NCBI GenBank assembly: GCA_021814165.1
Contig: JAKAIX010000002.1
Location: forward strand, 5,371-69,370
Direction: 5' to 3'
Length of the DNA stretch: 64,000 nucleotides
Source: a bacterium
GTDB taxonomy: Bacteria > Patescibacteriota > Minisyncoccia > UBA6257 > GWB1-50-10
In this document: positions 1 to 36,627 of the stretch, in pieces
Layout of the letters: each line of letters starts with the position of its first letter
How positions within the stretch are numbered: the first letter of the stretch is position 1
Made by a program: the position numbers and the translations under genes
The notes under the pieces: model-generated
What the model was told of the DNA's origin: nothing
What the model saw: only the letters and a program-made list of their open reading frames with translations
Databases searched by the model: none

Positions 1-79
1 CCATACAAGACCGACGATTGAAAAAAGGAAAAGAATCGGGATAAACTTCGCGTACAATTTCCGGAATCGTTCCATTGTT

Positions 80-1117
80 TTACAAAAAAACCGGCTGGTA
101 TAACTCTTTGGCGCGCTCAATAAATTCCACCGCGCGATGGTAGTTCGTTCCCTTTTTCCTTATGAAGTCGAACCCTCGCTGCCGGAGTTCTTCTCTTTCT
201 TTCTTATGACTTACGTAATAAGTAAGGCGTTCGAGCAGGTCTTTTTTGTCTTTCACGAAAATGGCGCATCCGTCGGTCGCCTCGGGCGCCGCGGGATTAT
301 CGGAAAAACACAGCGCTCCATATGCGAGAGATTCAACGACCCGCTCGGTTACCATCCTATTTTCAATGTTGCTCGCATCGCTCAACCCGAGGGAAACCAT
401 GGAATTCTTGTAAACGTCGACCCTGGTTTCTTCCTTCACGTACGGCGGAGTGGGAAATATCTTCGCGCGCGGGTTATTAAGGAAGGGGCCATAATACTCC
501 GGATGGTAGTTCTTGTTTCCTATATAACAAATTTCATATTTCTCGTTAACGCATCCTTCTCCTACCTCGTCAGGATGCACGTTCGCGGAAAGCGGATAGG
601 GAATCGCTTTCCTGTCTTTAAGGTAGAGACGATACCATTCCCACACAGGGGACGTTCGAGGAATTTCCGTGCGGTAATACTCGCCGCTCACGAGATACGG
701 CATGCCGAGCCGTTCCATAACATAGACGAGCGAAGACGCCCACGCGATAACCACGATGTCCTTTTTCTTCGCAAGCTGTTTCAGAACGCGGATTTGAAGC
801 CGCTCGGCGACAATACCAAGCACGCCATCCGCGTATGCCGCGGAATAGAATACGTCGTGTCCCGGAATCCATTTGATCGGGTGCAGAAAACGCGTCACGT
901 CGGCGCGTAACATGCGAATCCCCCAAATCGAGTTATAAAAAAAATTATGGCACGAGATCATTACGAACCCGGGCTCGGTGATTTCCTCCACGTGACGTAC
1001 TAATTTGACATCAAAACCGTGCGGCGCGAATCCTGCCGCGAACTTTTCGACAAAGAACCGGTGGTTATAGGGCGTTGGGAGAAAAAGGTGATCGAGAATA
1101 TAAAAAGTTTTTTTCAC
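80..1117 (-). CDS. glycosyltransferase (GT-B type C-terminal domain)
   Basis: 345-aa ORF; C-terminal ESLAYGALCFSDN-like motif typical of GT1/GT4 C-terminal domains; sits at the edge of the glycan locus. Confidence 0.5.
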   Translation of the reverse strand: MKKTFYILDHLFLPTPYNHRFFVEKFAAGFAPHGFDVKLVRHVEEITEPGFVMISCHNFFYNSIWGIRMLRADVTRFLHPIKWIPGHDVFYSAAYADGVLGIVAERLQIRVLKQLAKKKDIVVIAWASSLVYVMERLGMPYLVSGEYYRTEIPRTSPVWEWYRLYLKDRKAIPYPLSANVHPDEVGEGCVNEKYEICYIGNKNYHPEYYGPFLNNPRAKIFPTPPYVKEETRVDVYKNSMVSLGLSDASNIENRMVTERVVESLAYGALCFSDNPAAPEATDGCAIFVKDKKDLLERLTYYVSHKKEREELRQRGFDFIRKKGTNYHRAVEFIERAKELYQPVFL

Positions 1118-1224
1118 GTACCACGATTATATCCGAGAAACGGGAAACTGCAAGGGGACGAAACCACGGAGCGGACTTCGTTCATTCCTTGATTTCGCGC
1201 TCCCTTGTGATTTATCATTATCAC

Positions 1225-1740
1225 ATGATAGAAGTAACCCGCACCAAACTTGAAGGCGTGCTGCTCGTAAAGCCGTCAATAAACGAGGATTTCAGGGGAA
1301 AATACGTTGAGACATATAACGAAGAGGAATATCGCGCAAAAGGAATAGCCGCGCACTTTGTGCAGGACGACATTTCGGTTTCGTCCCGCGGCGTACTTCG
1401 CGGAATCCACGGCGATAAGACAACATGGAAATTAATATCATGCCTCAGGGGGAGGTTCTATTTTGTGGTGGTAAACTGCGACGAGACATCGCCCCAATTC
1501 CGCGAGTGGGAGTCGTTCGTGCTGACGGAAGAAAATCAGTGGCAGGTGCTCGTGCCCCCGAAATTCGGAAACGCGCACCTCGCATTGAGCGACGAAATTG
1601 TCTTTCATTACAAGCAATCAACGTACTACGATCCGGGGAGCCAGTTCAGCTATCGCTGGGATGATCCGCAATTCGGAATCTGGTGGCCGATCAAGAATCC
1701 CCTCCTTTCTCCCAGAGACGAAGGAAAAAAGCGGGATTAA
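1225..1740 (+). CDS. RmlC-like cupin sugar-nucleotide 3,5-epimerase (dTDP-4-dehydrorhamnose 3,5-epimerase family)
   Basis: Start moved to the internal ATG at 1225 (MIEVTRTKLEGVLLVKP...). Motifs FRGKYVETYN, RGIHGDK and WQVLVPPKFGNAHLAL are diagnostic of the RmlC fold. The ORF-track N-terminal extension is Arg-rich junk. Confidence 0.8.
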   Translation: MIEVTRTKLEGVLLVKPSINEDFRGKYVETYNEEEYRAKGIAAHFVQDDISVSSRGVLRGIHGDKTTWKLISCLRGRFYFVVVNCDETSPQFREWESFVLTEENQWQVLVPPKFGNAHLALSDEIVFHYKQSTYYDPGSQFSYRWDDPQFGIWWPIKNPLLSPRDEGKKRD

Positions 1741-1744
1741 CGGC

Positions 1745-2557
1745 ATGTCCAAAAGGAAAAATCTTGTTCTGGGAGGAAAAGGATTCGTAGGCGCCGAACT
1801 CGTGCGGCTCCTTGAAGAGAAGGGCGAGGAAATAAGAATCATAGACAGAAAACTCGGCGACGACCTGAAACACGCCGAGAAATACGCGGAAATGTTCGAG
1901 TGGGCGGATCGCACATGGTTTATCGCCTGGGAGATAGGAATTTGGAAGCACGCAACCGATCCCGCGTATCAGATAGGCACTTTGGCCGCGAGCATCGATC
2001 TCTGCAAGTCCGTCTTCGGTGCATTGGAAAAAGCGAAGAAACCCTTCCTTTTCGTAAGCACCCAGTTCGCCGGATATCCGAGCGTTCTCGGATCGGTAAA
2101 GAGGGTCGGAGAAGTATGGACAACGCTTCTCGGCGGGCTCACCGCGCGTTTCTGGAACGTATACGGATTCGAGGAGATAGGAGAAAAAAGCCACGTGGTC
2201 CCCGATATGATCTATAATGCCCTTACCAAAAAACGTATCACGCTTCTCACGAACGGCGAAGAGACGCGGCAGTTTCTCTTCGTGAGGGATGCGGCGGAAG
2301 GACTCCTGCACCAATTTGAGACCGGGCAACCGGTTGCGGATATCACGAACGGCGAGTGGGTTTCGATAAAAAGCGTGGCGGACATGATCGCCGCAAAAAC
2401 GGGCACCGTGGTAGAAACCGGAGACGGAACCGGGCACGCTTCTTTTGCGGAACCAAAAAATATCCTCTCCGGATGGAGCCCTCGCTTTACTCTCGACGAG
2501 GGGCTGGCACTCACCATCGATCGCATACGAGAGTCGATGCAACAAAAACAAACATGA
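1745..2557 (+). CDS. short-chain NAD(P)-dependent sugar-nucleotide reductase/epimerase (RmlD-like size)
   Basis: Start moved to the ATG at 1745 (MSKRKNLVLGGKGFVGAELVRLLEEKGEEIRIID), a Rossmann GxxGxxG N-terminus. The 270 aa length is in the range of 4-keto-sugar reductases. Confidence 0.6.
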   Translation: MSKRKNLVLGGKGFVGAELVRLLEEKGEEIRIIDRKLGDDLKHAEKYAEMFEWADRTWFIAWEIGIWKHATDPAYQIGTLAASIDLCKSVFGALEKAKKPFLFVSTQFAGYPSVLGSVKRVGEVWTTLLGGLTARFWNVYGFEEIGEKSHVVPDMIYNALTKKRITLLTNGEETRQFLFVRDAAEGLLHQFETGQPVADITNGEWVSIKSVADMIAAKTGTVVETGDGTGHASFAEPKNILSGWSPRFTLDEGLALTIDRIRESMQQKQT

Positions 2558-3495
2558 CGAAAATACTTGTTACGGGAGGCGCGGGATATATCGGATCCGT
2601 ACTCGTGCCGATGTTGTTAAAAGAGGGGTATGAAGTTACGGTAATCGACAACTTCATGTACTCGCAGACGTCGCTTCTCGACGTTTGCTATCATCCGAAC
2701 CTCCATATCGCAAGAGGAGACGTGCGCGATGAAGAGGCCATGAAACGGCTCATGGAGGATGCGGAATTCATCATACCGCTCGCCTGCATCGTCGGCGCAC
2801 CGGCGTGCGACCGAGATCCGAGAGCGGCGCGGACGATAAATCTCGAGGCGGTGGAATTTATCCTAAAGACGCGCCATGCCTCCCAAAAAATCATTTTCCC
2901 GAACACCAACAGCGGCTATGGCAGATCAAAAGACGGGAGCGTGGCATTCTGCGACGAAACGACGCCTCTTAATCCCCTTTCGCTGTACGGAACACTCAAA
3001 GTCCAGGCAGAACAGGAAATATTGGCCGCGGGAAACGCCGTTACTTTCAGGCTGGCCACCGTATTCGGCATAAGCCCGAGAATGAGGCTGGATCTTCTCG
3101 TGAACGACTTCGTGTACCGGGCAATCACCGACAGGGCAGTCATTCTCTTCGAGCCGCATTTCAAACGGAATTATATCCACGTCCGCGACGTGGCAAACGC
3201 GTTCCTGCACGCGATAAAGAATTTCGAAACAATGAAAAATGAGCCGTACAATATCGGGCTGAGCGACGCGAACTTGAGCAAACGCGAGCTCTGCGAGGAA
3301 ATAAAAAAGCAGCTCCCCGATTTTGTGTTTATCGAATCGGAGATAGGAAAAGACGTGGATCAGCGCAACTATATGGTAAGCAACGAAAAAATAGAACGCA
3401 CCGGATTCAAACCCGCCATTTCAATCCAGGAGGGCATCACGGAACTTATAAAAGGATTCAAGATTATTCGTCGTACGGATTTCAGCAATCTTTAA
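2554..3495 (+). CDS. NAD-dependent epimerase/dehydratase family protein (extended SDR)
   Basis: Start at the ATG at 2554 overlaps the previous stop (ATGA). MTKILVTGGAGYIGSVLVPMLL Rossmann motif, 313 aa, SDR-type sugar-nucleotide modifying enzyme. Confidence 0.75.
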   Translation: MTKILVTGGAGYIGSVLVPMLLKEGYEVTVIDNFMYSQTSLLDVCYHPNLHIARGDVRDEEAMKRLMEDAEFIIPLACIVGAPACDRDPRAARTINLEAVEFILKTRHASQKIIFPNTNSGYGRSKDGSVAFCDETTPLNPLSLYGTLKVQAEQEILAAGNAVTFRLATVFGISPRMRLDLLVNDFVYRAITDRAVILFEPHFKRNYIHVRDVANAFLHAIKNFETMKNEPYNIGLSDANLSKRELCEEIKKQLPDFVFIESEIGKDVDQRNYMVSNEKIERTGFKPAISIQEGITELIKGFKIIRRTDFSNL

Positions 3496-3499
3496 ACTG

Positions 3500-4489
3500 A
3501 TGGTTATTTCACGCACCCCATTCCGCATCTCTTTCTTCGGGGGAGGTACGGATTACCCGGTCTGGTACACGACTCACGGCGGCGCCGTACTTTCGACCTC
3601 GATTAATAAATATTGTTACGTTACCTGCCGGTATTCTCCCCTGATACTCGAAAAAAGATACAAAGTAGCGTGGTCCAAGGTAGAATCCGTAAACGATGTC
3701 GAAGAAATCGAGCACCCTGTCGTAAGGGAAACAATAAAGCTTTTCGAGTTGAAGGAAGGCGTGGAGGTGCACTATATAGCCGATCTTCCCGCGCGAACGG
3801 GAATGGGTTCGAGTTCTTCGTTCACGGTCGGCCTGATCCACGCGCTTCACGCGCTCCTCGGAAAAACCGTATCAAAAAACCAGCTTGCGAAAGAGGCGAT
3901 CCGCGTGGAACGCGAATTACTGAAAGAGAACGTCGGGTCGCAGGACCAGGTTGCCGCCGCTTTCGGAGGACTCAACAAAATCACCTTCAACGCGCGCGAC
4001 GGATTTTCCGTTCACCCTATCGTCTTATCACCGGAGAAACTTGCGACACTGGAGAGCAACTTGCTCCTTCTTTTCACCGGTTTCTCAAGAAATACTTCCG
4101 AGATAAGTCAGGAGCAAATTAAGAACACTCCCTTGCTCGAGAGGGAGCTCACGAGGATGACTTCCATCGTCGATGAGGCTATAGAGATATTGAACGACTC
4201 CACGGAACGGCTCGACGATTTCGGACGCCTTCTCGACGAAGCGTGGCGGCTGAAACGGTCTTTCTCCTCCGTTATTACGCGCCCGGAGATCGATGAAATA
4301 TACGAGGCGGGAAAAAAGGCGGGAGCGCTTGGAGGAAAACTTCTCGGCGCGGGAGGAGGCGGCTTCATGCTTTTTTATGCAAAACCCGAAGTGCATGATG
4401 CAATCCGAAAAGCGCTGAAAAAATTTTTCTTCGTCCCCTTCCAGTTCGAGCATGCGGGAAGCCAAATCATACATTACCACCCCGACTGA
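3500..4489 (+). CDS. GHMP-family sugar kinase, HddA-like (D-glycero-D-manno-heptose 7-phosphate kinase candidate)
   Basis: 329 aa; GHMP motif PARTGMGSSSSFTVGLIHAL; C-terminal GAGGGGFMLFY motif; immediately followed by a sugar-1-P nucleotidyltransferase. Confidence 0.7.
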   Translation: MVISRTPFRISFFGGGTDYPVWYTTHGGAVLSTSINKYCYVTCRYSPLILEKRYKVAWSKVESVNDVEEIEHPVVRETIKLFELKEGVEVHYIADLPARTGMGSSSSFTVGLIHALHALLGKTVSKNQLAKEAIRVERELLKENVGSQDQVAAAFGGLNKITFNARDGFSVHPIVLSPEKLATLESNLLLLFTGFSRNTSEISQEQIKNTPLLERELTRMTSIVDEAIEILNDSTERLDDFGRLLDEAWRLKRSFSSVITRPEIDEIYEAGKKAGALGGKLLGAGGGGFMLFYAKPEVHDAIRKALKKFFFVPFQFEHAGSQIIHYHPD

Positions 4490-4532
4490 ACGTATGAGGC
4501 GCGCATCATCTTCCCGATCGCGTTTTCCCGAA

Positions 4533-5237
4533 ATGGATTTTGTAATCCTCTGCGGAGGGCTTGGAACGCGGCTCCGTACGACACTCCCGAATATGCCGAA
4601 AGCGCTCGCGCCCATTGCGGGGACCCCGTTTCTCGACATTCTCCTCCATCACCTCTTTAAGGCGGGGTTTAAGCGCATTATTCTCGCCGTAGGTCATCTT
4701 CAAAATCCCATCATCTCCCGCTATGGAAACGACTCCCGGATTTTGTTTGCAAAAGAACGCGAGCCGCTCGGTACGGGAGGTGCGGTGCGAAATGCGCGGC
4801 GTTTGATCAAAAGTCCCCATTTTTTCGTGGCAAACGGAGACACGTTCTCCGACGCGGATTACCAAAATTTTTTTACCGTTCACAAAACAAAAGGCGGCAT
4901 CGTCACGATGGGCATTACGCGGGCGGGCAGACGCACCGACGCGGGAAACATACTCACCGATGCGTCGGGACGCATTCTTTCATTTAAAGAGAAACGAGGC
5001 GCACGCTCCCGATCGGGAATCAGTGCGGGGCTTTATTGCATGAGACGGGAGGTTTTTGACGTTATGCCAAAACGAAAACGGTTCTCGCTTGAAGAAGAGG
5101 TTTTTTCCTCGCTCGCGCGGCAGGGGGTTCTCTTCGGCGTACCGATTAAACGCGAAGCAATCGACATCGGCACTCCTGCGCGATACGCACGCGCGAAACG
5201 CATCCTCAAGAAACATCGGCCGTCTTCCTTGCGATGA
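4533..5237 (+). CDS. sugar-1-phosphate nucleotidyltransferase, HddC-like (guanylyltransferase candidate)
   Basis: Start at the ATG at 4533 (MDFVILCGGLGTRLR...), the canonical G-x-G-T-R nucleotidyltransferase N-terminus. 234 aa. Its 3' end overlaps the convergent methyltransferase gene by 32 bp. Confidence 0.65.
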   Translation: MDFVILCGGLGTRLRTTLPNMPKALAPIAGTPFLDILLHHLFKAGFKRIILAVGHLQNPIISRYGNDSRILFAKEREPLGTGGAVRNARRLIKSPHFFVANGDTFSDADYQNFFTVHKTKGGIVTMGITRAGRRTDAGNILTDASGRILSFKEKRGARSRSGISAGLYCMRREVFDVMPKRKRFSLEEEVFSSLARQGVLFGVPIKREAIDIGTPARYARAKRILKKHRPSSLR

Positions 5238-6237
5238 CGGTTATTTGCGCGCCAAGACCGAACATGTTGGCGATGCTGTTGCCGGGGAAGTAATCGCAAA
5301 GCCCGAGCACGCGCTTTATCATCCGAACCGGTTTTTTCCCGAACCACGAACGCGAGACGGGCCATTTCGTGCCGCACATCGTTTCAAAAGAAGAAAAAAG
5401 ATTGCTGAAGAAATCGGTCGAATACGTTTTTTCAAGAGAAAATCCCGCTTCCTTAAAGAGACGCTGGAACGTTGCCTTCCGATAATGAACGTAATGGAGC
5501 GGGATTACGAAGCCGTCCCACCACTTCCCGCACATTATCGAACTGATACCGCCGTACTGGGGCACACCGATTACCAGCACCCCTCCGGGCTTCAAAACGC
5601 GGTTGAGTTCCCTGAGCGCTGCCGCGGGATCGGGGAAATGCTCAAAAACATGGAGAAGATGCACGGCATCGAAAAAACCGTCAGAAAATTCGAGCGTGTC
5701 CACGCTCCCTACGGAAATATTCTTCAGCCCCTGGCTTACCGCCGACGCCACCGCAATCGGACTCGGATCAACGCCGAACGTTTCCCATCCCAAGCCCTTG
5801 AGGTCGGCGAGAAAATTCCCCGCACCACAGCCAAGATCAAGCAGCCGCCCTCCTTTCACGAAACGAGGGTAATGGGCGAACGCGAGACGAAACGGGAAAA
5901 GGGAAAACTGCCACCATCGTTTTTCGCCGTACCCGAAGTATTGCCCCAACGTCCTCCGTTTCAGTAATGCGAGGATGCGCGCGACTACGCCCGCATTGCG
6001 CGCTCCCGCCACCCTGAACGGCCCGTACGACTCGTCAAAGAAAGAAGAGAGGGCTCCGTAGGCAAGCTGGGGATCGGTGAAAACCGTGCCGCACGAGCTG
6101 CACCGCATAACGGCAAAGGCCACGCCGGGATAGACGCGTTGTACCTTTCCTGTTTCTTCCATGCGGGCATGTATAATTGCGTGTCGTTCCGCGTGGCACA
6201 CGGGACATTTTCCTCTGCTTTGGACAATCGTACTCAT
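5206..6237 (-). CDS. class I SAM-dependent methyltransferase with N-terminal Zn-ribbon
   Basis: Start at M23 (MSTIVQSRGKCPVCHAER...CSSCG), 1 nt after the stop of the upstream gene. Motif LLDLGCGAGNF (SAM motif I) and VLKPGGVLVI (post-II). Confidence 0.75.
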   Translation of the reverse strand: MSTIVQSRGKCPVCHAERHAIIHARMEETGKVQRVYPGVAFAVMRCSSCGTVFTDPQLAYGALSSFFDESYGPFRVAGARNAGVVARILALLKRRTLGQYFGYGEKRWWQFSLFPFRLAFAHYPRFVKGGRLLDLGCGAGNFLADLKGLGWETFGVDPSPIAVASAVSQGLKNISVGSVDTLEFSDGFFDAVHLLHVFEHFPDPAAALRELNRVLKPGGVLVIGVPQYGGISSIMCGKWWDGFVIPLHYVHYRKATFQRLFKEAGFSLEKTYSTDFFSNLFSSFETMCGTKWPVSRSWFGKKPVRMIKRVLGLCDYFPGNSIANMFGLGAQITVIARKTADVS

Positions 6238-7358
6238 GAAGAACTTTTTGCTTTTGCGATTTCTCCGAACAGAGCCTCGTACCGCATGGCAATTGTCTCC
6301 CACGTATGATCGCGTTTCCAGAGCTCGAACGCACGGTCCGTAATTTCGCGGCGCTCGTCTTTATGTTCGAGAAAATGTTCCGCGGCACTTGCCATTGCTT
6401 TGGGCGTTTTCACGATCGTGACGCACGTCTCATGGTCCCTCACATTTCCGATATCGGTAGTAATGAAGAGGGTCTTGCTTGCAAACGATTCGTACATCAC
6501 GAGCGGAGCGCATTCGAGTTTCGATCCGAAAAGGAACGCGTCGGATTCCTGATAAGCCGAGACCACGTACGAACGCGGGACGTTTCCGAGAATTCTGATG
6601 CGGCGATTCAAGATGCCCTGTGCGGCACAGAAAGGATAACAACTGTACCATGAATGCCGCGTCGGAAGACCTCCTATAATAACGAGCGTCGCGTCATCGC
6701 GATTTAATCTACGAAACGCTTCGATCACAAATTGATGCCCCTTCGCAAAAAAATGATTCGAAACGTCCAGGAACAGATGTGGCGTTGTAATATTGTAGTG
6801 GCTCTTGAATCCGATGGACGGCGCGAGAAATTCGGCGCCTGCGCCGTTCGGGATGACAGCGGCCTTATCTCCCAATCCATGCTTATCTCCGAACAGTTTA
6901 TCCCGATAGCGGGGGGAGGTATATACAATCCGATCATACTTGCGAAGCGCGTTTACATATGCACTTTCATAATACGAATTGAAACGCGGATCGCCCACCT
7001 TCGAAAGTCCCGGCGTACTTAACACTTTACGCGCATGAATCGAATCAGCGATCTCGAACGCGAGATCGGTCGTCCACGTGTCCGCGGCGAAATTAAGGAT
7101 AACGTCGTAGTTTCCTCCGAGAATGAACCGCCGATACGCCTCCTTTTCGCCGCGTATCCCTTTCACAAGACTTCCTACGACCCGAAAACCGCTGATGCGT
7201 ACTCCGTTTATAAGCGCGGGGCGCCCCTCGCAAAACGAGGTCGCGACCGTTACTTCATGGCCGCGCAGAACGAGCCCCTCGGCAATCTGACGTGCCTGTT
7301 CCGCAATGCCTCCCCCGCCGGGGGCATGGTAGAACTCGACTGTGATGAGTATTTTCAT
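6234..7358 (-). CDS. glycosyltransferase family 4-like
   Basis: Start at MKILITVEFYHAPGGGGIAEQ (GT4 N-terminal glycine-rich motif); about 374 aa; translationally coupled to its neighbours. Confidence 0.75.
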   Translation of the reverse strand: MKILITVEFYHAPGGGGIAEQARQIAEGLVLRGHEVTVATSFCEGRPALINGVRISGFRVVGSLVKGIRGEKEAYRRFILGGNYDVILNFAADTWTTDLAFEIADSIHARKVLSTPGLSKVGDPRFNSYYESAYVNALRKYDRIVYTSPRYRDKLFGDKHGLGDKAAVIPNGAGAEFLAPSIGFKSHYNITTPHLFLDVSNHFFAKGHQFVIEAFRRLNRDDATLVIIGGLPTRHSWYSCYPFCAAQGILNRRIRILGNVPRSYVVSAYQESDAFLFGSKLECAPLVMYESFASKTLFITTDIGNVRDHETCVTIVKTPKAMASAAEHFLEHKDERREITDRAFELWKRDHTWETIAMRYEALFGEIAKAKSSS

Positions 7359-8119
7359 GAAGAAAATACATCCTTCATCCAAACGTCTAGCATCGCTTCC
7401 CCCTCCCGACCGACAAGATATCTCGAAAGAATTTCCCGCACCGCTTTCTTTTCATCGATTTCACCCGGCAACCGTTCGGCGAAGACGGTTATATTCGGTA
7501 ATTTTTTACCTCCGAATTTCCGATATACCGGAAGCGGTATAAACATGCCCGGTATGTTCAGGGCCGGCACCTGGAATCGCTTCGCGAGATCATTCGAGAT
7601 CTTGCGGAAACGCAAATTTCCAAAACCGAGTTTTTTCAAAACAAACTTATACTTCTCCTTATTCCATCCTTCTCCGTGGAACGCCCACGCCGCTTCCTGG
7701 GATCCGAACACGTGGCGTGAAATCTCGTAACGCTCCTTGGTGCCACCGAAAAGATAGTAGAAGATCGAGGTCGCGAAATCGGGAGTTTCCAAATGGAGAA
7801 CCCCGTGCGGTTTCAACCACCTGCGCCATTCGAGAAGCAGACGGAGCGCATCGGCTCTTCTAAAATGCTCGAATACGTGGTGGCCGCGAATTTCCGCGAT
7901 AGAACCGGACGGATAATGGAGCGTGGCGATATCCGCGTAGCGATCGGCTTTCACTTTCATCACGGAATGCTCCGACTGGGGAAAATCGATATTAAGATAC
8001 CCCTCGAGGTACTTGTCGCCGCAACCCAAGTGGAGTTTCAAATCAGTTTCTTTCATAAGATAGTACCCATTGTATCGTAAACGCACCAAGCTGTTCAAGG
8101 AACTCTCGAAACGCGTCAC
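7355..8119 (-). CDS. putative SAM-dependent methyltransferase-like protein
   Basis: LHLGCGDKYLEGYLNID motif I-like; HHVFEHF motif; 4-nt overlaps with both neighbours. Confidence 0.5.
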   Translation of the reverse strand: MTRFESSLNSLVRLRYNGYYLMKETDLKLHLGCGDKYLEGYLNIDFPQSEHSVMKVKADRYADIATLHYPSGSIAEIRGHHVFEHFRRADALRLLLEWRRWLKPHGVLHLETPDFATSIFYYLFGGTKERYEISRHVFGSQEAAWAFHGEGWNKEKYKFVLKKLGFGNLRFRKISNDLAKRFQVPALNIPGMFIPLPVYRKFGGKKLPNITVFAERLPGEIDEKKAVREILSRYLVGREGEAMLDVWMKDVFSS

Positions 8120-10196: not shown

Positions 10197-10197
10197 T

Positions 10198-11103: not shown

Positions 11104-11107
11104 GGAT

Positions 11108-14044: not shown

Positions 14045-14056
14045 ATCACTATTTTA

Positions 14057-15112: not shown

Positions 15113-15153
15113 GTTTTTCTTCCTTAAAAGTATACGTCCGAGGGGGAGGAAGG

Positions 15154-22828: not shown

Positions 22829-22833
22829 GCGAT

Positions 22834-23670: not shown

Positions 23671-23748
23671 ACCAAGAGTATATTACAACAAATACCCCGG
23701 TACAACCGGTTTGAAGTCGATCGGAAAAAACAGTATTATAACGACATA

Positions 23749-25020: not shown

Positions 25021-25032
25021 CGGGCGGTTTTT
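25003..25032. terminator. bidirectional rho-independent terminator between convergent genes
   Basis: The sequence aaaaaaccgc-tcgttaacgg-gcggtttttt is a GC stem flanked by A and T runs; it overlaps both stop codons. Confidence 0.5.
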
Positions 25033-25781: not shown

Positions 25782-25788
25782 ATTTCTT

Positions 25789-28969: not shown

Positions 28970-29064
28970 AATTACCAATTTTTCAATTTCCAATGATCAA
29001 TTAATTTTAAAATCGTTCAATTGAATTATTCATTGAAAATTGGAAATTGGTCATTGAAAATTTA
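28970..29064. repeat. intergenic inverted heptad-array element, copy A
   Basis: Left arm ttttcaatttccaatgatcaatt; AT-rich spacer; right arm cattgaaaattggaaattggtcattgaaaat; fills the whole stop-to-start gap. Confidence 0.8.
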
Positions 29065-30420
29065 TATCTCTTTCTTTTGCTTTTGTTCTCTGACTTCGAT
29101 AAACAGATAGGTGGCAAACCCAAGGAACAAAAATACGTTCAGATAGATCGGCAGCACGTCAAAAAGCGCGACTCCCTGCCCCAGATATCCCATGGGAATT
29201 GCGAGGAGGAGCGCAACGAAGAGATAACCATACGGATGAAGATGCGCGACGATGCTCCGCCGATGCTTCACCAGCTGCGAGAAAAACACCACAAAGATTC
29301 CCAGAAAGCTCAGGAGCCCCAAAATGCCCGTCTCCGCGAGATAATCAAAATACACGCTGTGCGCTCTATCAAACCACGTCTCGGAATGCTGGTCCGGAAC
29401 GAAGTGCCGCGTGTCGAGATATTTGTCAAAAACGACGCCGAAGTTTTCCGGCCCCCATCCCAAAAGCGGGCGTTCTTCCCAGCCCTTTATCGCCGACCCC
29501 CACGTCCAAAGACGGGTCTGCGCGGTTTTATCCGAGGTCGATACGTCAAGGAGACGGCTTGAGGATTCGCAGAAAGGGACGAGCGGAATACTCTCGTGAC
29601 GGAACGTGAAAGCGAGCGCCGCGAATACGATGCAGATCCCGGCGAGCGCAACCGAAATTTTCTTCCCTTTCCCTTGGGGAAGCGCAAACGCGAGATAAAG
29701 GAGCGCCGCGATAATACCGAGGCCGAACCCCAAGAGCGCGCCGCGCGTTTGAGAAAGAAGGAAAAATAACAAAAGGACGACAAGAAGCGCGGCGAAGAAC
29801 ACGTTTCTTTTCCCGTTCGATTTTTTTGAAAACCACAGCCACGACGCGTAAAACATCATGAACATAAGGTAGGGCGCAAGGTACGCCGGATTGCCGAACG
29901 ATCCGGCAATCCGGTCGCAAAATCCCGCGGGACCGATGAACGAGTTGATTCCGAGCGACGCGGCAATCCCGTAAAGAATCACCAACCCCGATGCGGCGAG
30001 CGAGAGCGTAAAAACCCATTTCCATTCCGCTCTGCTGCGAAACAGAAGCAACAAGAGCAGGAAGAAAACGTAGAAATGGAGCATCTGAAGCCCCCCGTCA
30101 CCGCGCTCGAAGTTCGACCAGAATGCCGCACCCGAGTCATAGGCGAAAAGCGACGCAAGAAGGAATACCAGCACGAAAGCGGAGACCGCAATAAACAGCG
30201 GGTGGCGGAATATCTGTTTTGCGCGCACCTTGAGCGTCTCCCACTCTCCCTTTGAAAAAATAACTCCCAGAAGGAATGAAATAAGCGCGAGATCGACGAT
30301 ACCGCGGAAGAACACGTACTTCCCCACCACAAAGGGGAAGAGCGTCGAGTTGGTAACGAGCGCAACACAGAATACGGAGATATAGAGAAGAATGCGAGAG
30401 AGTTTGAAGTAGTTAAACAT
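29062..30420 (-). CDS. Wzy_C / O-antigen-ligase-family polytopic membrane protein (PglL-like O-oligosaccharyltransferase candidate)
   Basis: 452 aa, about 10 to 12 TM helices, typical O-antigen ligase domain architecture. Confidence 0.55.
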   Translation of the reverse strand: MFNYFKLSRILLYISVFCVALVTNSTLFPFVVGKYVFFRGIVDLALISFLLGVIFSKGEWETLKVRAKQIFRHPLFIAVSAFVLVFLLASLFAYDSGAAFWSNFERGDGGLQMLHFYVFFLLLLLLFRSRAEWKWVFTLSLAASGLVILYGIAASLGINSFIGPAGFCDRIAGSFGNPAYLAPYLMFMMFYASWLWFSKKSNGKRNVFFAALLVVLLLFFLLSQTRGALLGFGLGIIAALLYLAFALPQGKGKKISVALAGICIVFAALAFTFRHESIPLVPFCESSSRLLDVSTSDKTAQTRLWTWGSAIKGWEERPLLGWGPENFGVVFDKYLDTRHFVPDQHSETWFDRAHSVYFDYLAETGILGLLSFLGIFVVFFSQLVKHRRSIVAHLHPYGYLFVALLLAIPMGYLGQGVALFDVLPIYLNVFLFLGFATYLFIEVREQKQKKEI

Positions 30421-30540: not shown

Positions 30541-33051
30541 CTACTTCACGGGCGTTATCTCTATCTTCGGCGTTCCCAAACCCGAAGAAGACGGAGCGGG
30601 GAGTTTGATTCCAAGTCCGTTGAATACCGGTTCGAGTTGCGACCAGATCGGGACTGTCCTGAAATCGATTTTTGTCGAGAGTCTTTCGAACTCGACCTTC
30701 GCCTCGGGATACTTCCCCCAGAGATAGTACGCAACCGCGATTTTCAAATTGATTTCGTTCTCCTGTAAAACGCTGGGCCTCATCTTCAACGCCCACGCAT
30801 AGTAACGGATTGCCGACTCATAGTCCTGTTTCTCATCCCCCATGATATCCCCGAGAGTCGTCGCTTCCGCTATGGTGCGCGGCTTACGATTGAGTTCCAA
30901 CGCTTTCCCTATTTCCCTGTCTCCCGTCGGAACGTCATGGAGCTGGTACGCAATGATTCCCAGATAGAAGTGTGGGTCTCCCGCCGACGGGTTCAAGTCA
31001 ACGGCAACCTTAAGCGCGTCGTAGGCGCTTTTCAAATCGCCTTCGAGAACCTTGGTCTTTCCGATTATATAGTACACCTGCTGGCGGTTCGGACTCAGCT
31101 CGAGAGCCTTTTTCTCCAACGCCTCCGCGTCTTTCAGGTAGCCCGCATCGAATTCATAAAACGTGTTTTTAAAGTCCGCGAGCGTGGCATAAAAAAGATA
31201 ATTCCGAGGATGATGATCAATCACTTTTTGCAGCTCCCCCTCAACGCGTTTCTGCAGGTTTGCGACATCGGGGTATTCGACCTGGCTCTCATACGCTCCT
31301 TTCACCACGTTTGCGAACGTAAGCCGGATATCGTCACGGTACGGGGTTCCCGCTGCAAGCGCCTCGTTCAGCGCCGAAACCGATTCCGCAGGAAGTTTGT
31401 TGAGATAATAATTGGGGCCCCAGTACTCACGGCCGGCGGCATACACCATGGGCCAGTTGAGAAAGAAAATCGGGATAAGCGAAACGACGAGAGCGGGGTA
31501 GGCGAACGGAACACGGGATGACGACGAACGCTCGCCGCCATGGGGAGGTCCGGCCTCCTCACGATCGGAGGCCGGGCCTCCTAATATTGCGTTCGGCGAT
31601 CCCTTATAGCGAACATCTATATAGGCTAAGACGAGAAAAAACATAAGATAGGTGCCGATCGTATCGAAGATGACGAGGTTTTGGATAAAATACGCGGCGA
31701 GCATGCCGAAGAATATGATTTTCGGGATACTCCCCTCCCTCGATCTTTTCAGTTCGTAGAGAAGAAGAGCCCATATTCCGAGATACGCAAGAAGTCCCAC
31801 TATGCCGCTTGTTATTGCGTACTCGATAAGCACGTTGTGCGGCTTGTCCCAATACGTCTCGCCGAAATTATTGGAAAGCAGTGCCGGATCATAATGTCTC
31901 TGGAATGCGAGGTTGAAATTTTCCCACCCGAATCCGAATACCGGATGTACAGAGAACGATTGCGCAGCGCTTCGCCACGCGATTATTCTGTTTTCAAATT
32001 CGCTCCGCACCGTCGTGAAGCTTTGGATACGATCAAATCCTGGTACCTGCATCCAAAATGAAGCGCTCCGCGTAAAATAAAAGACGCCGCCGAATGCAAT
32101 CACTATTATAAGAATCCAAAGCCAGACATTTTTAAAAATGAGAAAACTCTGCCTCCCGCCGGAAAAACGTGAAGGATCGGCCTCCAAGCGCGAGGAGGCC
32201 GAGCCTCCTGATTTTGCGTTTGTGCGCTGATAGCGGATAGCGAGAAGAAAAATAATAATGAAGAGACCGACTATAAGACCTCCTATATCTCCTCTTGTCT
32301 CGGTTTTAAAAATAGCAAACGCATCAACGAGAGCGATTATGAGGGCAAGCCACGGCATGACGCGGGCGACACCACGGAGGCCCGGCCTCCGCGAGTAGGA
32401 GGCCGGGCCTCCCAATTCCGCGGAACTCCTAGTTTCATACCAAACATATATCCCCAGGAAGACGTGAAAAAGGAGATAACCGGCGAGGAACGTGGGGTTA
32501 CCGAACGAAGATCCCGGGCGCGGATCATCCTGTCGCAGGAAAAATTGTCCGATATCGGGAAGGAAGGTAAGAAGCGCGCCAAGCGCGGAGAACAAACTCG
32601 CCACCAAGCTCGCAAACCAGACATTCTTCCATTTGAGCTCATCTCCGAGGGAAGAGAGAGCGACGAAGAAGAGTGTAAAAATCCAGAGTGCAACAATGCC
32701 GATGGTACGCACCTCTTGCGACCATAAACTCATCATGAGATCCTCCCCAAAAAACGCGGAGATAGTGAGTACGAGCATAAAGACGACAACACCGATAGTG
32801 AGGGGGGTGAAACGAGGACTAAAACGGCGACGGTCAAAGCGAGGAGACTCGGCTTCCTTACTGAGGCCGAGTCTCCTGCCGAGGACGAGCGCGACCCAGA
32901 GGAAGATAATGATTCCCGCGAGCGACTGGAAAATAGCGCTCTTTACGACGATGAAAGGATTCATCGTCCACTTCCAGAAAAAGAGGGGGACAAGTATCAC
33001 CATCGCGTAGAGGCAGCCGCGGATAATCTTCAAAACGGAGTTTTCGGACAT
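30541..33051 (-). CDS. Wzy_C/O-antigen-ligase-like polytopic membrane domain fused to C-terminal TPR repeats
   Basis: 836 aa. The N-terminal ~480 aa are multi-TM; the C-terminal ~300 aa are TPR (ALELSPNRQQVYYIIGKT..., LKMRPSVLQENE...). Carries four in-frame GC-rich palindromic inserts. Confidence 0.6.
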   Translation of the reverse strand: MSENSVLKIIRGCLYAMVILVPLFFWKWTMNPFIVVKSAIFQSLAGIIIFLWVALVLGRRLGLSKEAESPRFDRRRFSPRFTPLTIGVVVFMLVLTISAFFGEDLMMSLWSQEVRTIGIVALWIFTLFFVALSSLGDELKWKNVWFASLVASLFSALGALLTFLPDIGQFFLRQDDPRPGSSFGNPTFLAGYLLFHVFLGIYVWYETRSSAELGGPASYSRRPGLRGVARVMPWLALIIALVDAFAIFKTETRGDIGGLIVGLFIIIFLLAIRYQRTNAKSGGSASSRLEADPSRFSGGRQSFLIFKNVWLWILIIVIAFGGVFYFTRSASFWMQVPGFDRIQSFTTVRSEFENRIIAWRSAAQSFSVHPVFGFGWENFNLAFQRHYDPALLSNNFGETYWDKPHNVLIEYAITSGIVGLLAYLGIWALLLYELKRSREGSIPKIIFFGMLAAYFIQNLVIFDTIGTYLMFFLVLAYIDVRYKGSPNAILGGPASDREEAGPPHGGERSSSSRVPFAYPALVVSLIPIFFLNWPMVYAAGREYWGPNYYLNKLPAESVSALNEALAAGTPYRDDIRLTFANVVKGAYESQVEYPDVANLQKRVEGELQKVIDHHPRNYLFYATLADFKNTFYEFDAGYLKDAEALEKKALELSPNRQQVYYIIGKTKVLEGDLKSAYDALKVAVDLNPSAGDPHFYLGIIAYQLHDVPTGDREIGKALELNRKPRTIAEATTLGDIMGDEKQDYESAIRYYAWALKMRPSVLQENEINLKIAVAYYLWGKYPEAKVEFERLSTKIDFRTVPIWSQLEPVFNGLGIKLPAPSSSGLGTPKIEITPVK
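31544..31581. repeat. in-frame GC-rich palindrome doublet, insert 1
   Basis: ggaggtccggcctcc-N8-ggaggccgggcctcc inside the CDS; encodes GGPASDREEAGPP. Confidence 0.8.
32172..32208. repeat. in-frame GC-rich palindrome doublet, insert 2 (first half degenerate)
   Basis: ggatcggcctcc-N8-ggaggccgagcctcc, followed by a tgattttgcg flank similar to insert 1. Confidence 0.7.
32376..32412. repeat. in-frame GC-rich palindrome doublet, insert 3
   Basis: ggaggcccggcctcc-N7-ggaggccgggcctcc; encodes GGPASYSRRPGLR. Confidence 0.8.
32843..32877. repeat. in-frame palindrome, insert 4 (variant)
   Basis: ggagactcggc-N13-gccgagtctcc. Confidence 0.6.
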
Positions 33052-33120: not shown

Positions 33121-33150
33121 CAAAAAAACAACCCGCCGGAAAGGCGGGTT
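33121..33150 (-). terminator. rho-independent terminator of the surface-protein gene
   Basis: cccgcc-ggaaa-ggcggg stem-loop followed on the minus strand by TTGTTTTTTTG. Confidence 0.8.
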
Positions 33151-33174
33151 GTTTCGTACCAACGAATTGCTCCC

Positions 33175-36100
33175 CTAGTTGGTGTAGGTGACGTGTGCGA
33201 GGTTGAGCGGGACGCTGACGTCGCTTGAAAGATTCAAGCCGTTCGCCGTCGAGCCGCTAACTGCGCCATCGCCCCAGTTGACATCCGATGCAGCATTCAT
33301 GGTCACGTCGAGTGACTGACCAAGGTTCGCCGAGACATAGAAGTTCGACGAATCAACCTTGAGCGCGATACCCTTCGTGGAACCCGACGAAATCGGGGTT
33401 CCCGTAAAGGCAAAGCTTACGCTACAAGAGTTGCCGGTCGGGCTGCAGGACTGCGGGTTCGTCGCTCCATCATAAGCCGATCCGGTTGAAGGATCGATAA
33501 GGCTCACGTTGAAGGAACTTGCCGTCGAGAGCGCGCCGCCGACGAATCGGAGTGACAAGGTGTTTACCTTGATTTCCTGACCCGAAGCATCCGCGCTAAG
33601 TTTCACGCACGCGACATAGTCGGTCGTGGTTCTCGAGCGAGCAGTCGTGGAACCGCCAGTGTAGCTGCCGCACGTGCTGTCGGAGCCCAAAGAGGTTCCG
33701 GCAAGCGAGAGCTTGCTTCTCAACGTTGTAAGCGTCGCGAAGGACGGCGTGCCCGTTACCGTCACCGAAGTGTTGGAGGACTTGCCGTACGCAACTACGC
33801 TCGAGGTCGCCGAAATCGCGATCGAGGTGGTCGCATTTTCAATGCTGCCACCGCCGACCACGAAGGGCGCCGCGTTACCGCGGAGTTCCACCGAGAGCGT
33901 TCCGGCCTGCGGCACCAACATAGAGGCGCTGTTGCCGAAGTTGAAGTCAGCTACGAAGGACGGAGCCGCGCTCGTCATCGAGATCGGACCCGCGCCCGCA
34001 ATAGCCGCTCCGCTCGCGTCATAGAGCTGCAGGTTCGTGAATGCAGCGCCAACCGAGGATCCGGTGTTCAAGTTAAACTTGAGCTCCTGGATTCTGATCG
34101 GTTCGATACCCGCCGTGTCAGTCAAGAGGATCTTCGCCAAGCTTACGCCCGTCGAACCCAAGACAACCTGGCGCGAAGCGCCGGAGTTGTTGTTTGAGAT
34201 CGTGAGCGAAGGACCTGTCGATACCGTGATGTTCTGACCGGTCGGAGTACCGCTGCAGGAGACGGACGTATTCGTCGTCTGACCCGTTCCCGTGCAGGAT
34301 ACGAACGAAGTGAGCGTTCCCATGTCGCCGGTGTTCGTGGTCAAGATATCCGCATAGATATCAACAACCGCCGTACCTCCCACGGGGACCGTGAAGGTGC
34401 CCGCGAAAGTATGATTGCCGGACGAGATGGTCGAGATCGCCGAACCGATGACCGTCGAACCAACCATCGCCTTGAGGTTCTGGAAGTTCGAGGACGAAGC
34501 GTTCGTCGAAACCGTGAAGTTCGAGATGTTCACGCCTTCAGCCGAGGATGCGGTAAAGACGTACGAACCGACTTTCGTCGCCGGTGCGCCTTTCGCATAC
34601 GTCTGGCTCGCAAACGCGCCGTTCTTCGTCACCGTAAGAGGTGTCGTCGAAAGCGTGAGTGCGGAACCGGTCGCCGAACCGCTCGAGCTCGTCTGGCTTG
34701 AAGTCAAGCCCTGCAAGTTCGAGGAGTTGCCCGGCAGGCTGGCAGTCACCGTCGTGAAGTCAGCACCCGTCTGAACATCGCCTCTCACGGAAATCGTGCG
34801 AGTCGTGTTTGCGGGGATGACATATACGATCGGCGAGCCGCTCGTACCGAAGTGACACGTTACCGTGCCTCCCGCTACGAAGGAACAACCGCCGCTGTTC
34901 GCCGAACTGGTATTGCCAGTCGTCGAAATCGTGGTGCCGATCTGGTTGCCCTGATCGTCAACCAAGCGGAGGTTTTGCAGGTCGGAATCGAACGCAGTGG
35001 ACGAATTCGTCCAGTTGTGTGTTCCACCCGTCTTCACTAAGTTCACATCCAAGAACTTCACTTTTACGGCCTCACCCGCCGCGTATACGTCAAATTTCGC
35101 GAGGGTTGTTCCCGCACCACCCAAGGCAATATTGCCGGTCGGGGTGTTCGTGTTGACGGAGGTCGTGATCTGTCCCTGGTTGATCGTTACCTGTACGCCG
35201 GAACCGCCGTTTACGGTCACCGAGACAGGAACGTTGTACTGCGTGTCTACCGCGTAGATGTCATACGAGTTCAGAACTTCGAACTGGAAGTTGAAGCTCG
35301 GGGAACCCGTTACGTCCGCGTAGACCTGGATGTTGTTCGATCCGGTCTGAAGTTTTACCGGAGCCGACGAGAAGTCGAAGTATCCCGAGCCGTCCGCAGT
35401 AACAGAAGCCAAGGTGGCTCCCGCCTGCTTTCCGTTCACGAGCATCTTCACGTTCTTCAGGTCGGTCTTCAGCGCGGAACCAACCACCTTGAAGTTGATC
35501 GAGGTGAGGTTTACCGGGCTGTTGCTCACCGTCGCGGTCCACTGCGATACGAGGACACCGTTCGTGCCCGCATACACCGTGGTACCCACGGACGATGACG
35601 CAAGCGTCACGGACGCGATCGAAGGATTCGAGACGCTCGTCACCGTGAAAACGTTGCCGTTCATCGGGAAGGTCGCCGAAGCCGTGACCGCCGCGCCGGT
35701 CGCATCAGTCGCACTTACATCGCTTGCTCCGGTCATTGCAAACGCAATCGTGTTACCGGCGGAGAGATTCACCGCAGGATCGATCGAAAGCGTAAGGTTT
35801 ACGGTCTGACCGGCCGCAATGTTCAAAGCGATTCCGGAGAATTCAATCACGCCGCTGTTCACGGACGTGTATTGATACAATACCTTGCCGTTTTGGACGA
35901 GGTATGCACCGGAGATCGCCGAATCAGCTACTACGCCTGTCTTGTGGAATTTGAGATTCGTGACAGTAACGCCGCTCGCGGTGCCAGCCGTCAAATTGAA
36001 GGCCATTACCGGAACGCGAGCCGCCGCTGAATTGGTGCTCGAAATTAACGCACCCGCCGCAGGATTATTGGAAGCAAGGCTTACCGCCAATCCGGATGCA

Positions 36101-36627
36101 GGAGCGGGAACCGACGGGGTGGAAGGAGTGCCCGGCGTCGACGGAGTCGACGGGGTTCCTACACTCACCGCGTTTACGCTTTCTCTGGTCTTAGGACCAA
36201 AGTACCCGACCGCGGGGGAGATTCCCTTCGCTGCCTGGTATTTTGCGAGAGCCGCCTTGGTCGCGGGGCCGAAGTATTCGGTTTCATTCCCCTTTGATCC
36301 GGCGCCGCTCGTCGCAACGGCGTAGCCGCTGCTATTCAAGAACTGCTGCAACGCCTTCACGTCCGTCCCCTTGCTTCCAAGGGTGAGGTCCTTAGAAAAA
36401 GTGTAAGACGAGCCGGAAGAGCCCGCAGTTCCCAATTGAGCCTGCAAAGCACTGATCTGCGCCAAAAGCTGGGCGATCTGCGCCTGCAGTTCCGCTGTAG
36501 TCGCCGCGGAGGCCGTGATCACTGAACCGGCAAACCATGCAACGGTCGCGACCGAAAGGCCTACTGCAACGACTTTTCGACTTAAATTACTCATTGTGTT
36601 GATAATTTCTGAAGAACACCGATCCAT
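33175..36627 (-). CDS. giant secreted/cell-surface protein: N-terminal signal/TM anchor, coiled-coil (AQLLAQISALQAQL), peptidoglycan-binding (PG_binding_1-like) domain, then about 950 aa of Ser/Thr/Gly/Ala/Val-rich beta-repeat (Ig-like) region
   Basis: 1150 aa. LGSKGTDVKALQQFLNSSGYAVA...GPATKAALAKYQAAKGI matches PG-binding domain signatures. The rest is low-complexity T/S/G-rich, consistent with an S-layer or pilus-like and O-glycosylation substrate. Confidence 0.6.
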   Translation of the reverse strand: MDRCSSEIINTMSNLSRKVVAVGLSVATVAWFAGSVITASAATTAELQAQIAQLLAQISALQAQLGTAGSSGSSYTFSKDLTLGSKGTDVKALQQFLNSSGYAVATSGAGSKGNETEYFGPATKAALAKYQAAKGISPAVGYFGPKTRESVNAVSVGTPSTPSTPGTPSTPSVPAPASGLAVSLASNNPAAGALISSTNSAAARVPVMAFNLTAGTASGVTVTNLKFHKTGVVADSAISGAYLVQNGKVLYQYTSVNSGVIEFSGIALNIAAGQTVNLTLSIDPAVNLSAGNTIAFAMTGASDVSATDATGAAVTASATFPMNGNVFTVTSVSNPSIASVTLASSSVGTTVYAGTNGVLVSQWTATVSNSPVNLTSINFKVVGSALKTDLKNVKMLVNGKQAGATLASVTADGSGYFDFSSAPVKLQTGSNNIQVYADVTGSPSFNFQFEVLNSYDIYAVDTQYNVPVSVTVNGGSGVQVTINQGQITTSVNTNTPTGNIALGGAGTTLAKFDVYAAGEAVKVKFLDVNLVKTGGTHNWTNSSTAFDSDLQNLRLVDDQGNQIGTTISTTGNTSSANSGGCSFVAGGTVTCHFGTSGSPIVYVIPANTTRTISVRGDVQTGADFTTVTASLPGNSSNLQGLTSSQTSSSGSATGSALTLSTTPLTVTKNGAFASQTYAKGAPATKVGSYVFTASSAEGVNISNFTVSTNASSSNFQNLKAMVGSTVIGSAISTISSGNHTFAGTFTVPVGGTAVVDIYADILTTNTGDMGTLTSFVSCTGTGQTTNTSVSCSGTPTGQNITVSTGPSLTISNNNSGASRQVVLGSTGVSLAKILLTDTAGIEPIRIQELKFNLNTGSSVGAAFTNLQLYDASGAAIAGAGPISMTSAAPSFVADFNFGNSASMLVPQAGTLSVELRGNAAPFVVGGGSIENATTSIAISATSSVVAYGKSSNTSVTVTGTPSFATLTTLRSKLSLAGTSLGSDSTCGSYTGGSTTARSRTTTDYVACVKLSADASGQEIKVNTLSLRFVGGALSTASSFNVSLIDPSTGSAYDGATNPQSCSPTGNSCSVSFAFTGTPISSGSTKGIALKVDSSNFYVSANLGQSLDVTMNAASDVNWGDGAVSGSTANGLNLSSDVSVPLNLAHVTYTN

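Follow-up and report, generated by a model that had tools for sequence, protein, structure and literature searches.

In Gram-positive bacteria, genes for surface layer (S-layer) glycosylation are grouped in slg clusters, which combine rml genes, glycosyltransferases, a capping O-methyltransferase and the initiating enzyme WsaP, while the S-layer gene is monocistronic and, in Geobacillus, close to the cluster (PMC2943079). The predicted S-layer O-oligosaccharyltransferases (O-OTases) WsaB and WsfB contain a Wzy_C domain. WsfB and PglL end in a C-terminal tetratricopeptide repeat (TPR) domain, whereas WsaB lacks it and the adjacent wsaA encodes a 168-aa TPR protein (PMC2943079). Here, we analyse a stretch of 64,000 nucleotides (the window) from a bacterium of the lineage Patescibacteriota, Minisyncoccia, UBA6257, GWB1-50-10 (assembly GCA_021814165.1, contig JAKAIX010000002.1, positions 5,371 to 69,370, forward strand). 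It carries a conserved 452-aa Wzy_C protein with a small membrane-anchored TPR partner between a glycan gene cluster and a large secreted surface protein. With a probability of about 0.42, the locus encodes a Wzx/Wzy pathway in which this pair transfers the glycan en bloc to protein, the adjacent 1139-aa surface protein being the prime candidate acceptor. The slg locus is the closest described organisation, a likeness in layout and domains.

Patescibacteria, or the candidate phyla radiation (CPR), account for a considerable part of bacterial diversity, and they live attached to the cells of a host. Homologs of the window proteins carry the names Minisyncoccia, Parcubacteria, Liptonbacteria, Wolfebacteria or Patescibacteria. 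According to the literature, the phylum is monoderm (PMC11665869), cryo transmission electron microscopy of CPR cells displays an S-layer and no outer membrane (10.1101/2020.05.14.094862), and a cultured Parcubacterium has an “apparent S-layer” (10.1101/2022.04.20.488981). In the literature searched, we found no paper identifying the proteins or glycans of the CPR cell surface, and nothing relevant on an O-antigen ligase in Parcubacteria, Patescibacteria or CPR.

The Wzy_C proteins and their TPR partner

The central features of the locus, in window coordinates, are as follows.

1–75, minus strand: third Wzy_C protein, 454 aa (Wzy_C 51.7 bits); its first 25 codons are window bases 75–1, and the rest lies off the left edge (L003 11043–12407)
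28358–28966, minus strand: 202-aa protein with one N-terminal transmembrane (TM) helix and a TPR domain (TPR_19, E=5e-7), partner of the 452-aa Wzy_C protein
29062–30420, minus strand: 452-aa Wzy_C protein (E=1.1e-19, 71.2 bits) with a GT-C_B fold resembling WaaL; it may act as terminal glycan transferase, either as ligase or as O-OTase
30541–33051, minus strand: 836-aa paralog with Wzy_C core, extra TM helix and C-terminal TPR domain (Wzy_C E=2.6e-13, 50.5 bits)
33125–33155, minus strand: intrinsic terminator with a U-run and a 13-bp stem that includes 7 G-C pairs, placed between the genes for the surface protein and for the Wzy_C proteins
33175–36594, minus strand: 1139-aa secreted protein with signal peptide, coiled coil, PG_binding_1 domain, disordered Thr/Pro/Ser linker and about seven Ig-like β-sandwich domains

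A first, sequence-only reading of the window had named the proteins at 29062–30420 and 30541–33051 as two members of the Wzy_C family, and Pfam agrees at E=1.1e-19 and E=2.6e-13 (scan threshold E≤0.01; Wzy_C gathering score 31.7 bits). Its gene inventory overlooked the TM-TPR gene at 28358–28966, which has the tightest linkage to the 452-aa gene of all partners. The AlphaFold model of the 452-aa protein (pLDDT 84.7, pTM 0.88) retrieves WaaL as top Foldseek match (7tpg_B, E=2.4e-7, TM 0.57–0.62), followed by FtsW. A polytopic GT-C_B fold like that of WaaL and SEDS proteins is thus borne out for this protein, the sole paralog tested. Its sequence profile matched only two solved proteins, namely WaaL (7TPG, E=5e-10) and a 610-aa “Oligosaccharyltransferase” (9RMK, E=2e-6). 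Across 21 sequences, R226 (SQTRGA), R303 (QTRLWTW), and H354 (DRAHS) do not vary, and they align with the RG, R..W, and AHN motifs of 7TPG and 9RMK. Published work assigns the arginines to binding of the pyrophosphate of undecaprenyl pyrophosphate (Und-PP) and the histidine to catalysis (PMC12800693; PMC9829042). The catalytic residues conserved in PglL and WaaL are thus kept in the 452-aa protein and, as aligned Arg and His, in the 836-aa paralog.

In the 836-aa paralog, the aligned residues lie in ENRIIAW and KPHN, and a TETRGD motif matches SQTRGA. One added TM helix is followed by about 300 aa of TPR, and by this domain order the protein is a predicted fused equivalent of the 452-aa enzyme and its TPR partner. 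The Wzy_C core of WaaL ends in the cytoplasm; if the core ends there in the 836-aa protein as well, the extra helix would place the TPR domain outside the cell. The fused family comprises 595 clusters at 50% identity (E≤1e-30, full-length matches, 740–800 aa). Among related loci, the paralog was found in 10 of 66, each time between the surface-protein gene and the 452-aa gene.

The window ends inside the cluster. Flanks were read from contig DAIBYO010000002.1 (340 kb, GCA_027423885.1), which carries the window sequence exactly. To the left of base 1 follow the third Wzy_C gene, a GT2-family glycosyltransferase, a HAD phosphatase, a nucleotidyl (NTP) transferase, an epimerase, a Wzx-type flippase (Polysacc_synt, 117 bits), and a Bac_transf phosphoglycosyltransferase (211 bits). 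The latter two, the only Wzx and the only initiating transferase of the locus, lie 5.6–8.6 kb past the window edge. The sequence-only reading had seen no Wzx gene and had counted this against O-antigen synthesis. The observation holds inside the window and is an artefact of its edge; as an argument against a polysaccharide pathway it fails, as flippase, initiating transferase and a polymerase-like third Wzy_C protein stand just outside. The cluster contains no ABC transporter and has the Wzx-type flippase instead. By gene content, the locus is a predicted complete Wzx/Wzy-type pathway of about 45 kb, of which the window holds the larger part.

The third Wzy_C protein retains NSRGA and RAHN motifs and shares 22% identity with the 452-aa protein. 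Apart from itself, a word-prefilter search among 5.8 billion proteins returned no homolog at E≤0.001. On account of this absence of homologs, it is a candidate repeat-unit polymerase (Wzy).

The 452-aa protein behaves differently. It has more than 1300 database homologs, and at least 576 GTDB species genomes contain a relative. For comparison, we used 80 related Paceibacteria loci from 80 species, with denominators that vary by feature (55, 66, 72, 76). A TM-TPR homolog lies directly downstream of the 452-aa gene in 75 of 76 loci. Identity of the 452-aa enzyme across the set is 41–68% (median 46%), compared with about 70% for ClpB and about 31% for the TPR partner. Just past the TPR gene, 1.9–2.5 kb from the start of the Wzy_C gene, a short-chain dehydrogenase/reductase (SDR) epimerase starts in 37 of 72 loci. 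Beyond it come epimerases, NUDIX hydrolases, and glycosyltransferases, with a sugar-gene content that differs from genome to genome. The glycan genes of the window are rarely shared at this position (GT363 in 7/55 loci, NeuB in 2/55, the 658-aa open reading frame (ORF) at 15154–17130 in 0/55). From the conserved 452-aa enzyme, the variable glycan genes, and the orphan third Wzy_C protein, we infer a division of labour, in which the orphan would be the polymerase and the conserved pair probably the terminal transferase rather than a polymerase. The pair, we infer, recognises a conserved acceptor.

The three Wzy_C proteins might instead all be polymerases for two or three surface or exopolysaccharides, with the TPR proteins as export or chain-length scaffolds and no ligation. 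Wzy_C is indeed found in many polymerases, and NCBIfam returned a weak match to the repeat-unit polymerase model TIGR04370. TPR scaffolds occur in polysaccharide export systems, in line with weak matches to PgaA and PrsT, and neither the window nor about 10 kb of flank on each side contains a Wzz/PCP chain-length regulator. We regard this possibility as improbable. Polymerases can share as little as 16% identity between serotypes of a single species (PMC10920833), unlike the 452-aa enzyme, which is conserved across 80 species while the glycan genes downstream vary. Moreover, a single Wzx and a single initiating transferase are present, and the polymerase role would already be filled by the orphan.

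Still less probable is a housekeeping envelope function unrelated to the glycan cluster, such as an IctB-like transporter or another lipid-linked process, whose adjacencies would be coincidental. The pair does behave as a near-universal core gene, and a weak IctB match exists; at 49 bits against a cut-off of 366, IctB was rejected as an assignment. On the other hand, most loci have sugar-nucleotide genes after the pair, even though the content shifts, and the Und-PP-binding arginines and the catalytic histidine are invariant. An exosortase-associated ligase model was likewise discarded, with a score far under its cut-off.

The surface protein and the acceptor question

The 1139-aa protein has a signal-peptide-like N-terminus, a PG_binding_1 domain (E=3e-9), a TPSTPSTPGTPSTPSVP linker, and 27% Ser and Thr, in agreement with the sequence-only reading of a large secreted, peptidoglycan-binding, Ser/Thr-rich protein. 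The length of 1150 aa given there corresponds to the ORF; gene callers start at 36594, which yields 1139 aa. The mature protein (110.6 kDa, pI 5.8) falls inside the mass range of 40–170 kDa quoted for S-layer proteins (PMC2943079). In the AlphaFold model (pLDDT 79), residues 145–161 form a disordered linker and are followed by about seven β-sandwich domains. The “Ser/Thr-rich β-repeats” of the first reading therefore stand as structural domains only, since self-BLAST detects no sequence repeats. Foldseek relates them to tandem Ig-like arrays (PrgB, integrin legs, cadherins, antigen I/II). At least 690 full-length homologs share 45–50% identity, keep their length tightly at 1100–1170 aa, and are all annotated only as “peptidoglycan-binding protein”. 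Their architecture is conserved as well, with signal peptide, coiled coil, PG_binding_1, low-complexity linker, and β domains. The linkers of the orthologs are mostly Thr/Ser/Pro/Gly repeats; the Ser/Thr linker as a universal sequon was rejected, since the linkers are variable in sequence and some are free of Ser and Thr. The gene is monocistronic, its ORF ending 20 nt before the terminator at 33155–33125 (minus strand), which the first reading had correctly placed behind it. Taken together, the protein is a candidate S-layer protein or adhesin and a candidate glycan acceptor.

Upstream of the surface-protein gene lies an unusually long intergenic region of 675 nt (36595–37269). A 171-nt stretch within it (36845–37015, minus strand) folds as a long rod-like hairpin (−77.1 kcal/mol, z=−8.15 versus shuffles), with a promoter-like TTGGTATACTATAAG before it and a terminator-like stem with U-run (36872–36849) at its end. 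It matches no Rfam family, and conservation (about 74%) is limited to L006, the closest relative. Possible identities are a small RNA and a 5′ leader element. The next gene (37270–38058, minus strand) shares 59 nt with the 3′ end of clpB and encodes a 262-aa polytopic membrane protein with no Pfam or NCBIfam match. In related loci where a homolog was detected (26–55% identity), it lies between ClpB and the surface-protein gene, and a similar, unannotated 237-aa protein holds the same position in a genome whose Wzy_C genes are elsewhere. The 262-aa protein appears tied to the surface protein.

In the proposed pathway, the off-window Bac_transf phosphoglycosyltransferase would prime undecaprenyl phosphate. 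Cytoplasmic glycosyltransferases and many methyltransferases would then assemble a repeat unit from unusual sugars, presumably dTDP-6-deoxy and amino sugars, a GDP-heptose-type sugar, and a CMP-ulosonic acid. The off-window Wzx would flip the unit across the membrane, and the orphan in-cluster Wzy_C protein, which starts at window base 75, would polymerise it. Finally, the 452-aa Wzy_C protein and its membrane-anchored TPR partner would move the finished Und-PP-linked glycan en bloc onto an extracytoplasmic acceptor, a reaction that the fused 836-aa paralog would perform in the same way. Protein Ser/Thr is the most likely acceptor class, which would make the enzymes O-OTases, and the neighbouring surface protein is the prime candidate, in parallel to the WsaB/WsaA and WsfB systems of Firmicutes. 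That the adjacent surface protein specifically is the acceptor is a narrower claim, and we put it forward as somewhat doubtful.

A lipid A-core acceptor of the classical kind is unlikely, because the phylum is described as monoderm and without an outer membrane. The O-antigen/WaaL reading was set aside as unlikely on this literature and on the absence of lipid A or lipopolysaccharide (LPS) genes from the window and about 20 kb flanks (about 85 kb in all). The same Wzx/Wzy pathway could nevertheless serve another non-protein acceptor, with Wzy_C and TPR ligating the polymer to peptidoglycan or a membrane glycolipid, to yield a wall-linked secondary polymer, capsule or lipoglycan, and with the surface protein unrelated. 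This alternative, which we consider less probable than transfer to protein and yet a real contender, gains from the best structure and sequence match being WaaL, whose acceptor is a lipid, and from the clade-specific adjacency of the surface protein. In addition, the roughly 85 kb scanned contain no LCP-family ligase, leaving that role open; the scan covered part of the genome, and an LCP enzyme may lie elsewhere. To our knowledge, no Wzy_C enzyme attaches a glycan to peptidoglycan. Furthermore, an extracytoplasmic TPR domain, split or fused, is common to the protein O-OTases WsfB, WsaB/WsaA, and PglL (PMC2943079).

Several points weigh against transfer to protein and against the surface protein as its target. 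First, the argument is built from genes, and the glycoprotein is putative here. Primary sequence and fold cannot tell O-OTases from WaaL-type ligases (PMC9829042), and the closest solved relative of the 452-aa protein is WaaL, a lipid-acceptor ligase, rather than the solved O-OTase. PglL_A and Wzy_C_2, the PglL-specific accessory domains, were absent from the Pfam scan, which returned only Wzy_C and TPR families. Moreover, GT121 O-ligases in Gram-positives are hypothesised to link capsule to peptidoglycan (PMC10920833). For the surface protein, Foldseek found generic Ig-like arrays and no S-layer-specific fold, and a few orthologs carry QQPV-type linkers without Ser or Thr.

The second group of such points concerns gene order. 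In 23 of 66 loci, a surface-protein homolog lies 2–7 kb upstream of the Wzy_C gene. The enzyme's neighbour-joining tree has two major clades, one of which contains all 23. This clade has 34 leaves, of which seven have another upstream context and four are undetermined. None of the 36 leaves of the other clade has the adjacency, and the upstream gene there, where read, is typically RNase Y. In a genome of this second type, the surface-protein ortholog stands beside ClpB and a small membrane protein; genes for HU and a sigma factor come next, and the vicinity lacks Wzy_C genes. As the adjacency travels with housekeeping synteny (ClpB, HtrA, SIMPL), it could be inherited gene order and can be explained by one rearrangement kept in a deep clade. 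Synteny was consequently downgraded from strong proof of a functional link to suggestive evidence.

The two arrangements can be compared directly. In the sister clade (L087), a block of RNase J, SBP_bac_5, SecG, a holin-like gene, iPGM, and RNase Y directly precedes the Wzy_C-TPR pair. The same genes are found in the window at 54300–57520 and 62117–63733, 24–35 kb from the pair. By this placement, the arrangements differ by a single junction swap, with RNase Y/Wzy_C and surface protein/HU junctions in one, and surface protein/Wzy_C and RNase Y/HU junctions in the other.

En bloc transfer to protein remains the reading we prefer. The sequence-only reading had proposed en bloc O-glycosylation of an S-layer-like protein; its observations were largely correct and cut short by the window edge, and its interpretation is plausible. 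The logic of the TPR partner, the ligase-like conservation, and the slg-like layout speak for it, while its argument from a missing Wzx was wrong and the adjacency on which it drew is confined to 23 of 66 loci in one clade.

A broader version of the proposal, which we offer tentatively, regards the 452-aa enzyme and its TPR partner as a near-universal, general protein O-glycosylation machine of Paceibacteria that decorates the 1100–1170-aa Ig-array protein, then an S-layer protein, and perhaps pilins, with strain-variable, heavily methylated glycans. If true, CPR would gain its first identified protein glycosylation system and its first identified S-layer protein, and a variable glycan coat would govern host attachment and phage evasion. 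In any case, the locus nominates a Wzy_C-TPR pair that borders a hypervariable glycan cluster and occurs in at least 576 species-level genomes, together with a conserved wall-binding family of about 1140 aa with Ig-like domains. Should the pair be an O-OTase, S-layer-type protein O-glycosylation would extend from Firmicutes to CPR, and new glycoengineering enzymes, possibly with relaxed glycan specificity, would become available. Should it be a ligase to peptidoglycan or lipid, GT121-like ligases of monoderms would have a function assigned to them for the first time. With either acceptor, the mechanism stays within a known enzyme class and is thus an incremental advance and not a new category.

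The glycan gene cluster and more distant genes

The cluster itself occupies window bases 80–28333 and comprises 29 ORFs, 23 on the minus and six on the plus strand. The earlier description of a glycan cluster of about 28 kb with more than 25 genes, mostly on the minus strand, therefore holds. Pfam and NCBIfam scans gave sugar-pathway Pfam matches for 27 of the 29.

80–1117, minus strand: glycosyltransferase (Glyco_trans_1_2, 345 aa, E=6e-11)
1075–5237, plus strand: five genes for an RmlC-like 3,5-epimerase, two SDR epimerase/reductases, an HddA-like GHMP kinase, and an HddC-like nucleotidyltransferase
5206–13303, minus strand: methyltransferase, GT4 glycosyltransferase, weak methyltransferase-like ORF, GT2 glycosyltransferase, DegT/PseC-like aminotransferase, methyltransferase, and 731-aa methyltransferase with APH-like kinase domain
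13310–15157, minus strand: RmlA (glucose-1-phosphate thymidylyltransferase, E=2e-59) and RmlB (4,6-dehydratase, E=1e-79)
15154–17130, minus strand: 658-aa protein without family or solved-structure match
17155–20934, minus strand: methyltransferase, NeuB-type ulosonic acid synthase, GmhA-like isomerase, KdsC/KDN-9-P-type phosphatase, and methyltransferase
within 21037–25020, minus strand: aldo-keto reductase, xylose-isomerase-like TIM barrel, and SDR, sugar-modifying
23665–25020, plus strand: class III aminotransferase, sugar-modifying
25032–28333, minus strand: PseF/NeuA-like cytidylyltransferase, NUDIX hydrolase, Glyco_trans_1_2 glycosyltransferase, and SDR epimerase

The Pfam families represented are RmlA/B/C, DegT, GmhA-like SIS, GHMP kinase, NTP-transferases, NeuB, CMP-transferase, KdsC-like HAD, and SDR epimerases. 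Six or seven methyltransferases are present and only four glycosyltransferases. The plus-strand block at 1075–5237 suggests a deoxyhexose and a GDP-heptose-type branch. The sugar assigned to this block is a prediction, because scores stay under the NCBIfam equivalog cut-offs: the HddA-like kinase and the HddC-like nucleotidyltransferase are both weak matches. The GmhA-like isomerase, located elsewhere in the cluster, reaches 194 bits against a cut-off of 209.

Two proteins of the cluster have unusual features. The ORF at 15154–17130 encodes a cytoplasmic-looking protein of 658 aa in the middle of the cluster; Pfam, NCBIfam, and PDB searches gave no match, and none of 55 related loci has a homolog. 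The protein could represent a novel glycosyltransferase or an enzyme that modifies the glycan. The 731-aa protein at 11108–13303 (minus strand) joins a zinc-ribbon-like N-terminus (CTNCG...CNACG) and a class I methyltransferase domain to a weak APH-like kinase domain, which suggests that glycan methylation is combined with phosphorylation.

Two further genes lie outside the cluster. A NifS/IscS-like class V aminotransferase (43147–44670, minus strand) is 507 aa as longest ORF and 499 aa according to the gene caller. Its best Pfam stretch covers only residues 266–495, and it exceeds the 384-aa ortholog in the relative L086 by about 115 aa. In the right flank, outside the window (L005 16110–19682), an isoleucyl-tRNA-synthetase-like gene of 1190 aa contains an inserted or fused His_Phos_1 (phosphoglycerate-mutase-like) domain, as assigned by Pfam.

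Comparison with known glycan transferases and slg loci

WaaL (CAZy GT121; 7TPG/7TPJ) is the best match of the 452-aa enzyme in sequence and fold and has the same Arg/Arg/His active-site motifs. Like WaaL, the enzyme is more conserved than the glycan genes it would serve. In contrast to WaaL, it belongs to a monoderm phylum without outer membrane, where the lipid A-core acceptor should be absent, it comes with a TPR partner or fusion, and LPS genes are missing from the roughly 85 kb.

With the protein O-OTases PglL, PglS, TfpO, and TfpM of Neisseria and Acinetobacter (PMC9829042; PMC12800693; 9RMK), the enzyme shares the Wzy_C domain, the GT-C_B fold, and the conserved catalytic His and Arg, as well as, in the proposed pathway, en bloc transfer from Und-PP-glycans via a Wzx-dependent route. 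It differs from them in the weak sequence match (E=2e-6 to 9RMK), in the lack of PglL_A and Wzy_C_2 domains, and in its monoderm host. For these enzymes, a separate TPR partner with a TM anchor has not been described. Some Acinetobacter strains carry two O-OTase genes.

The reference slg loci are those of Geobacillus stearothermophilus NRS 2004/3a (WsaB and WsaA, WsaP, WsaE, rmlABCD, sgsE) and Paenibacillus alvei CCM 2051T (WsfB, WsfP, spaA) (PMC2943079). Unlike these loci, the present one has a Wzx flippase and a polymerase-like Wzy_C protein in place of a Wzm/Wzt ABC transporter, three Wzy_C paralogs, and a sugar set richer in methyltransferases and extended by an ulosonic-acid branch. Its surface protein would be anchored to the wall by PG_binding_1, whereas Firmicute S-layer proteins typically use anchors of the SLH type (S-layer homology). 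The resemblances are a monoderm host, a Wzy_C transferase with either a fused C-terminal TPR domain or a small adjacent TPR protein, and an accompanying set of rml genes, glycosyltransferases, O-methyltransferases, and a Bac_transf-type initiator. As in Geobacillus, a large secreted surface protein is encoded near the cluster on its own transcript.

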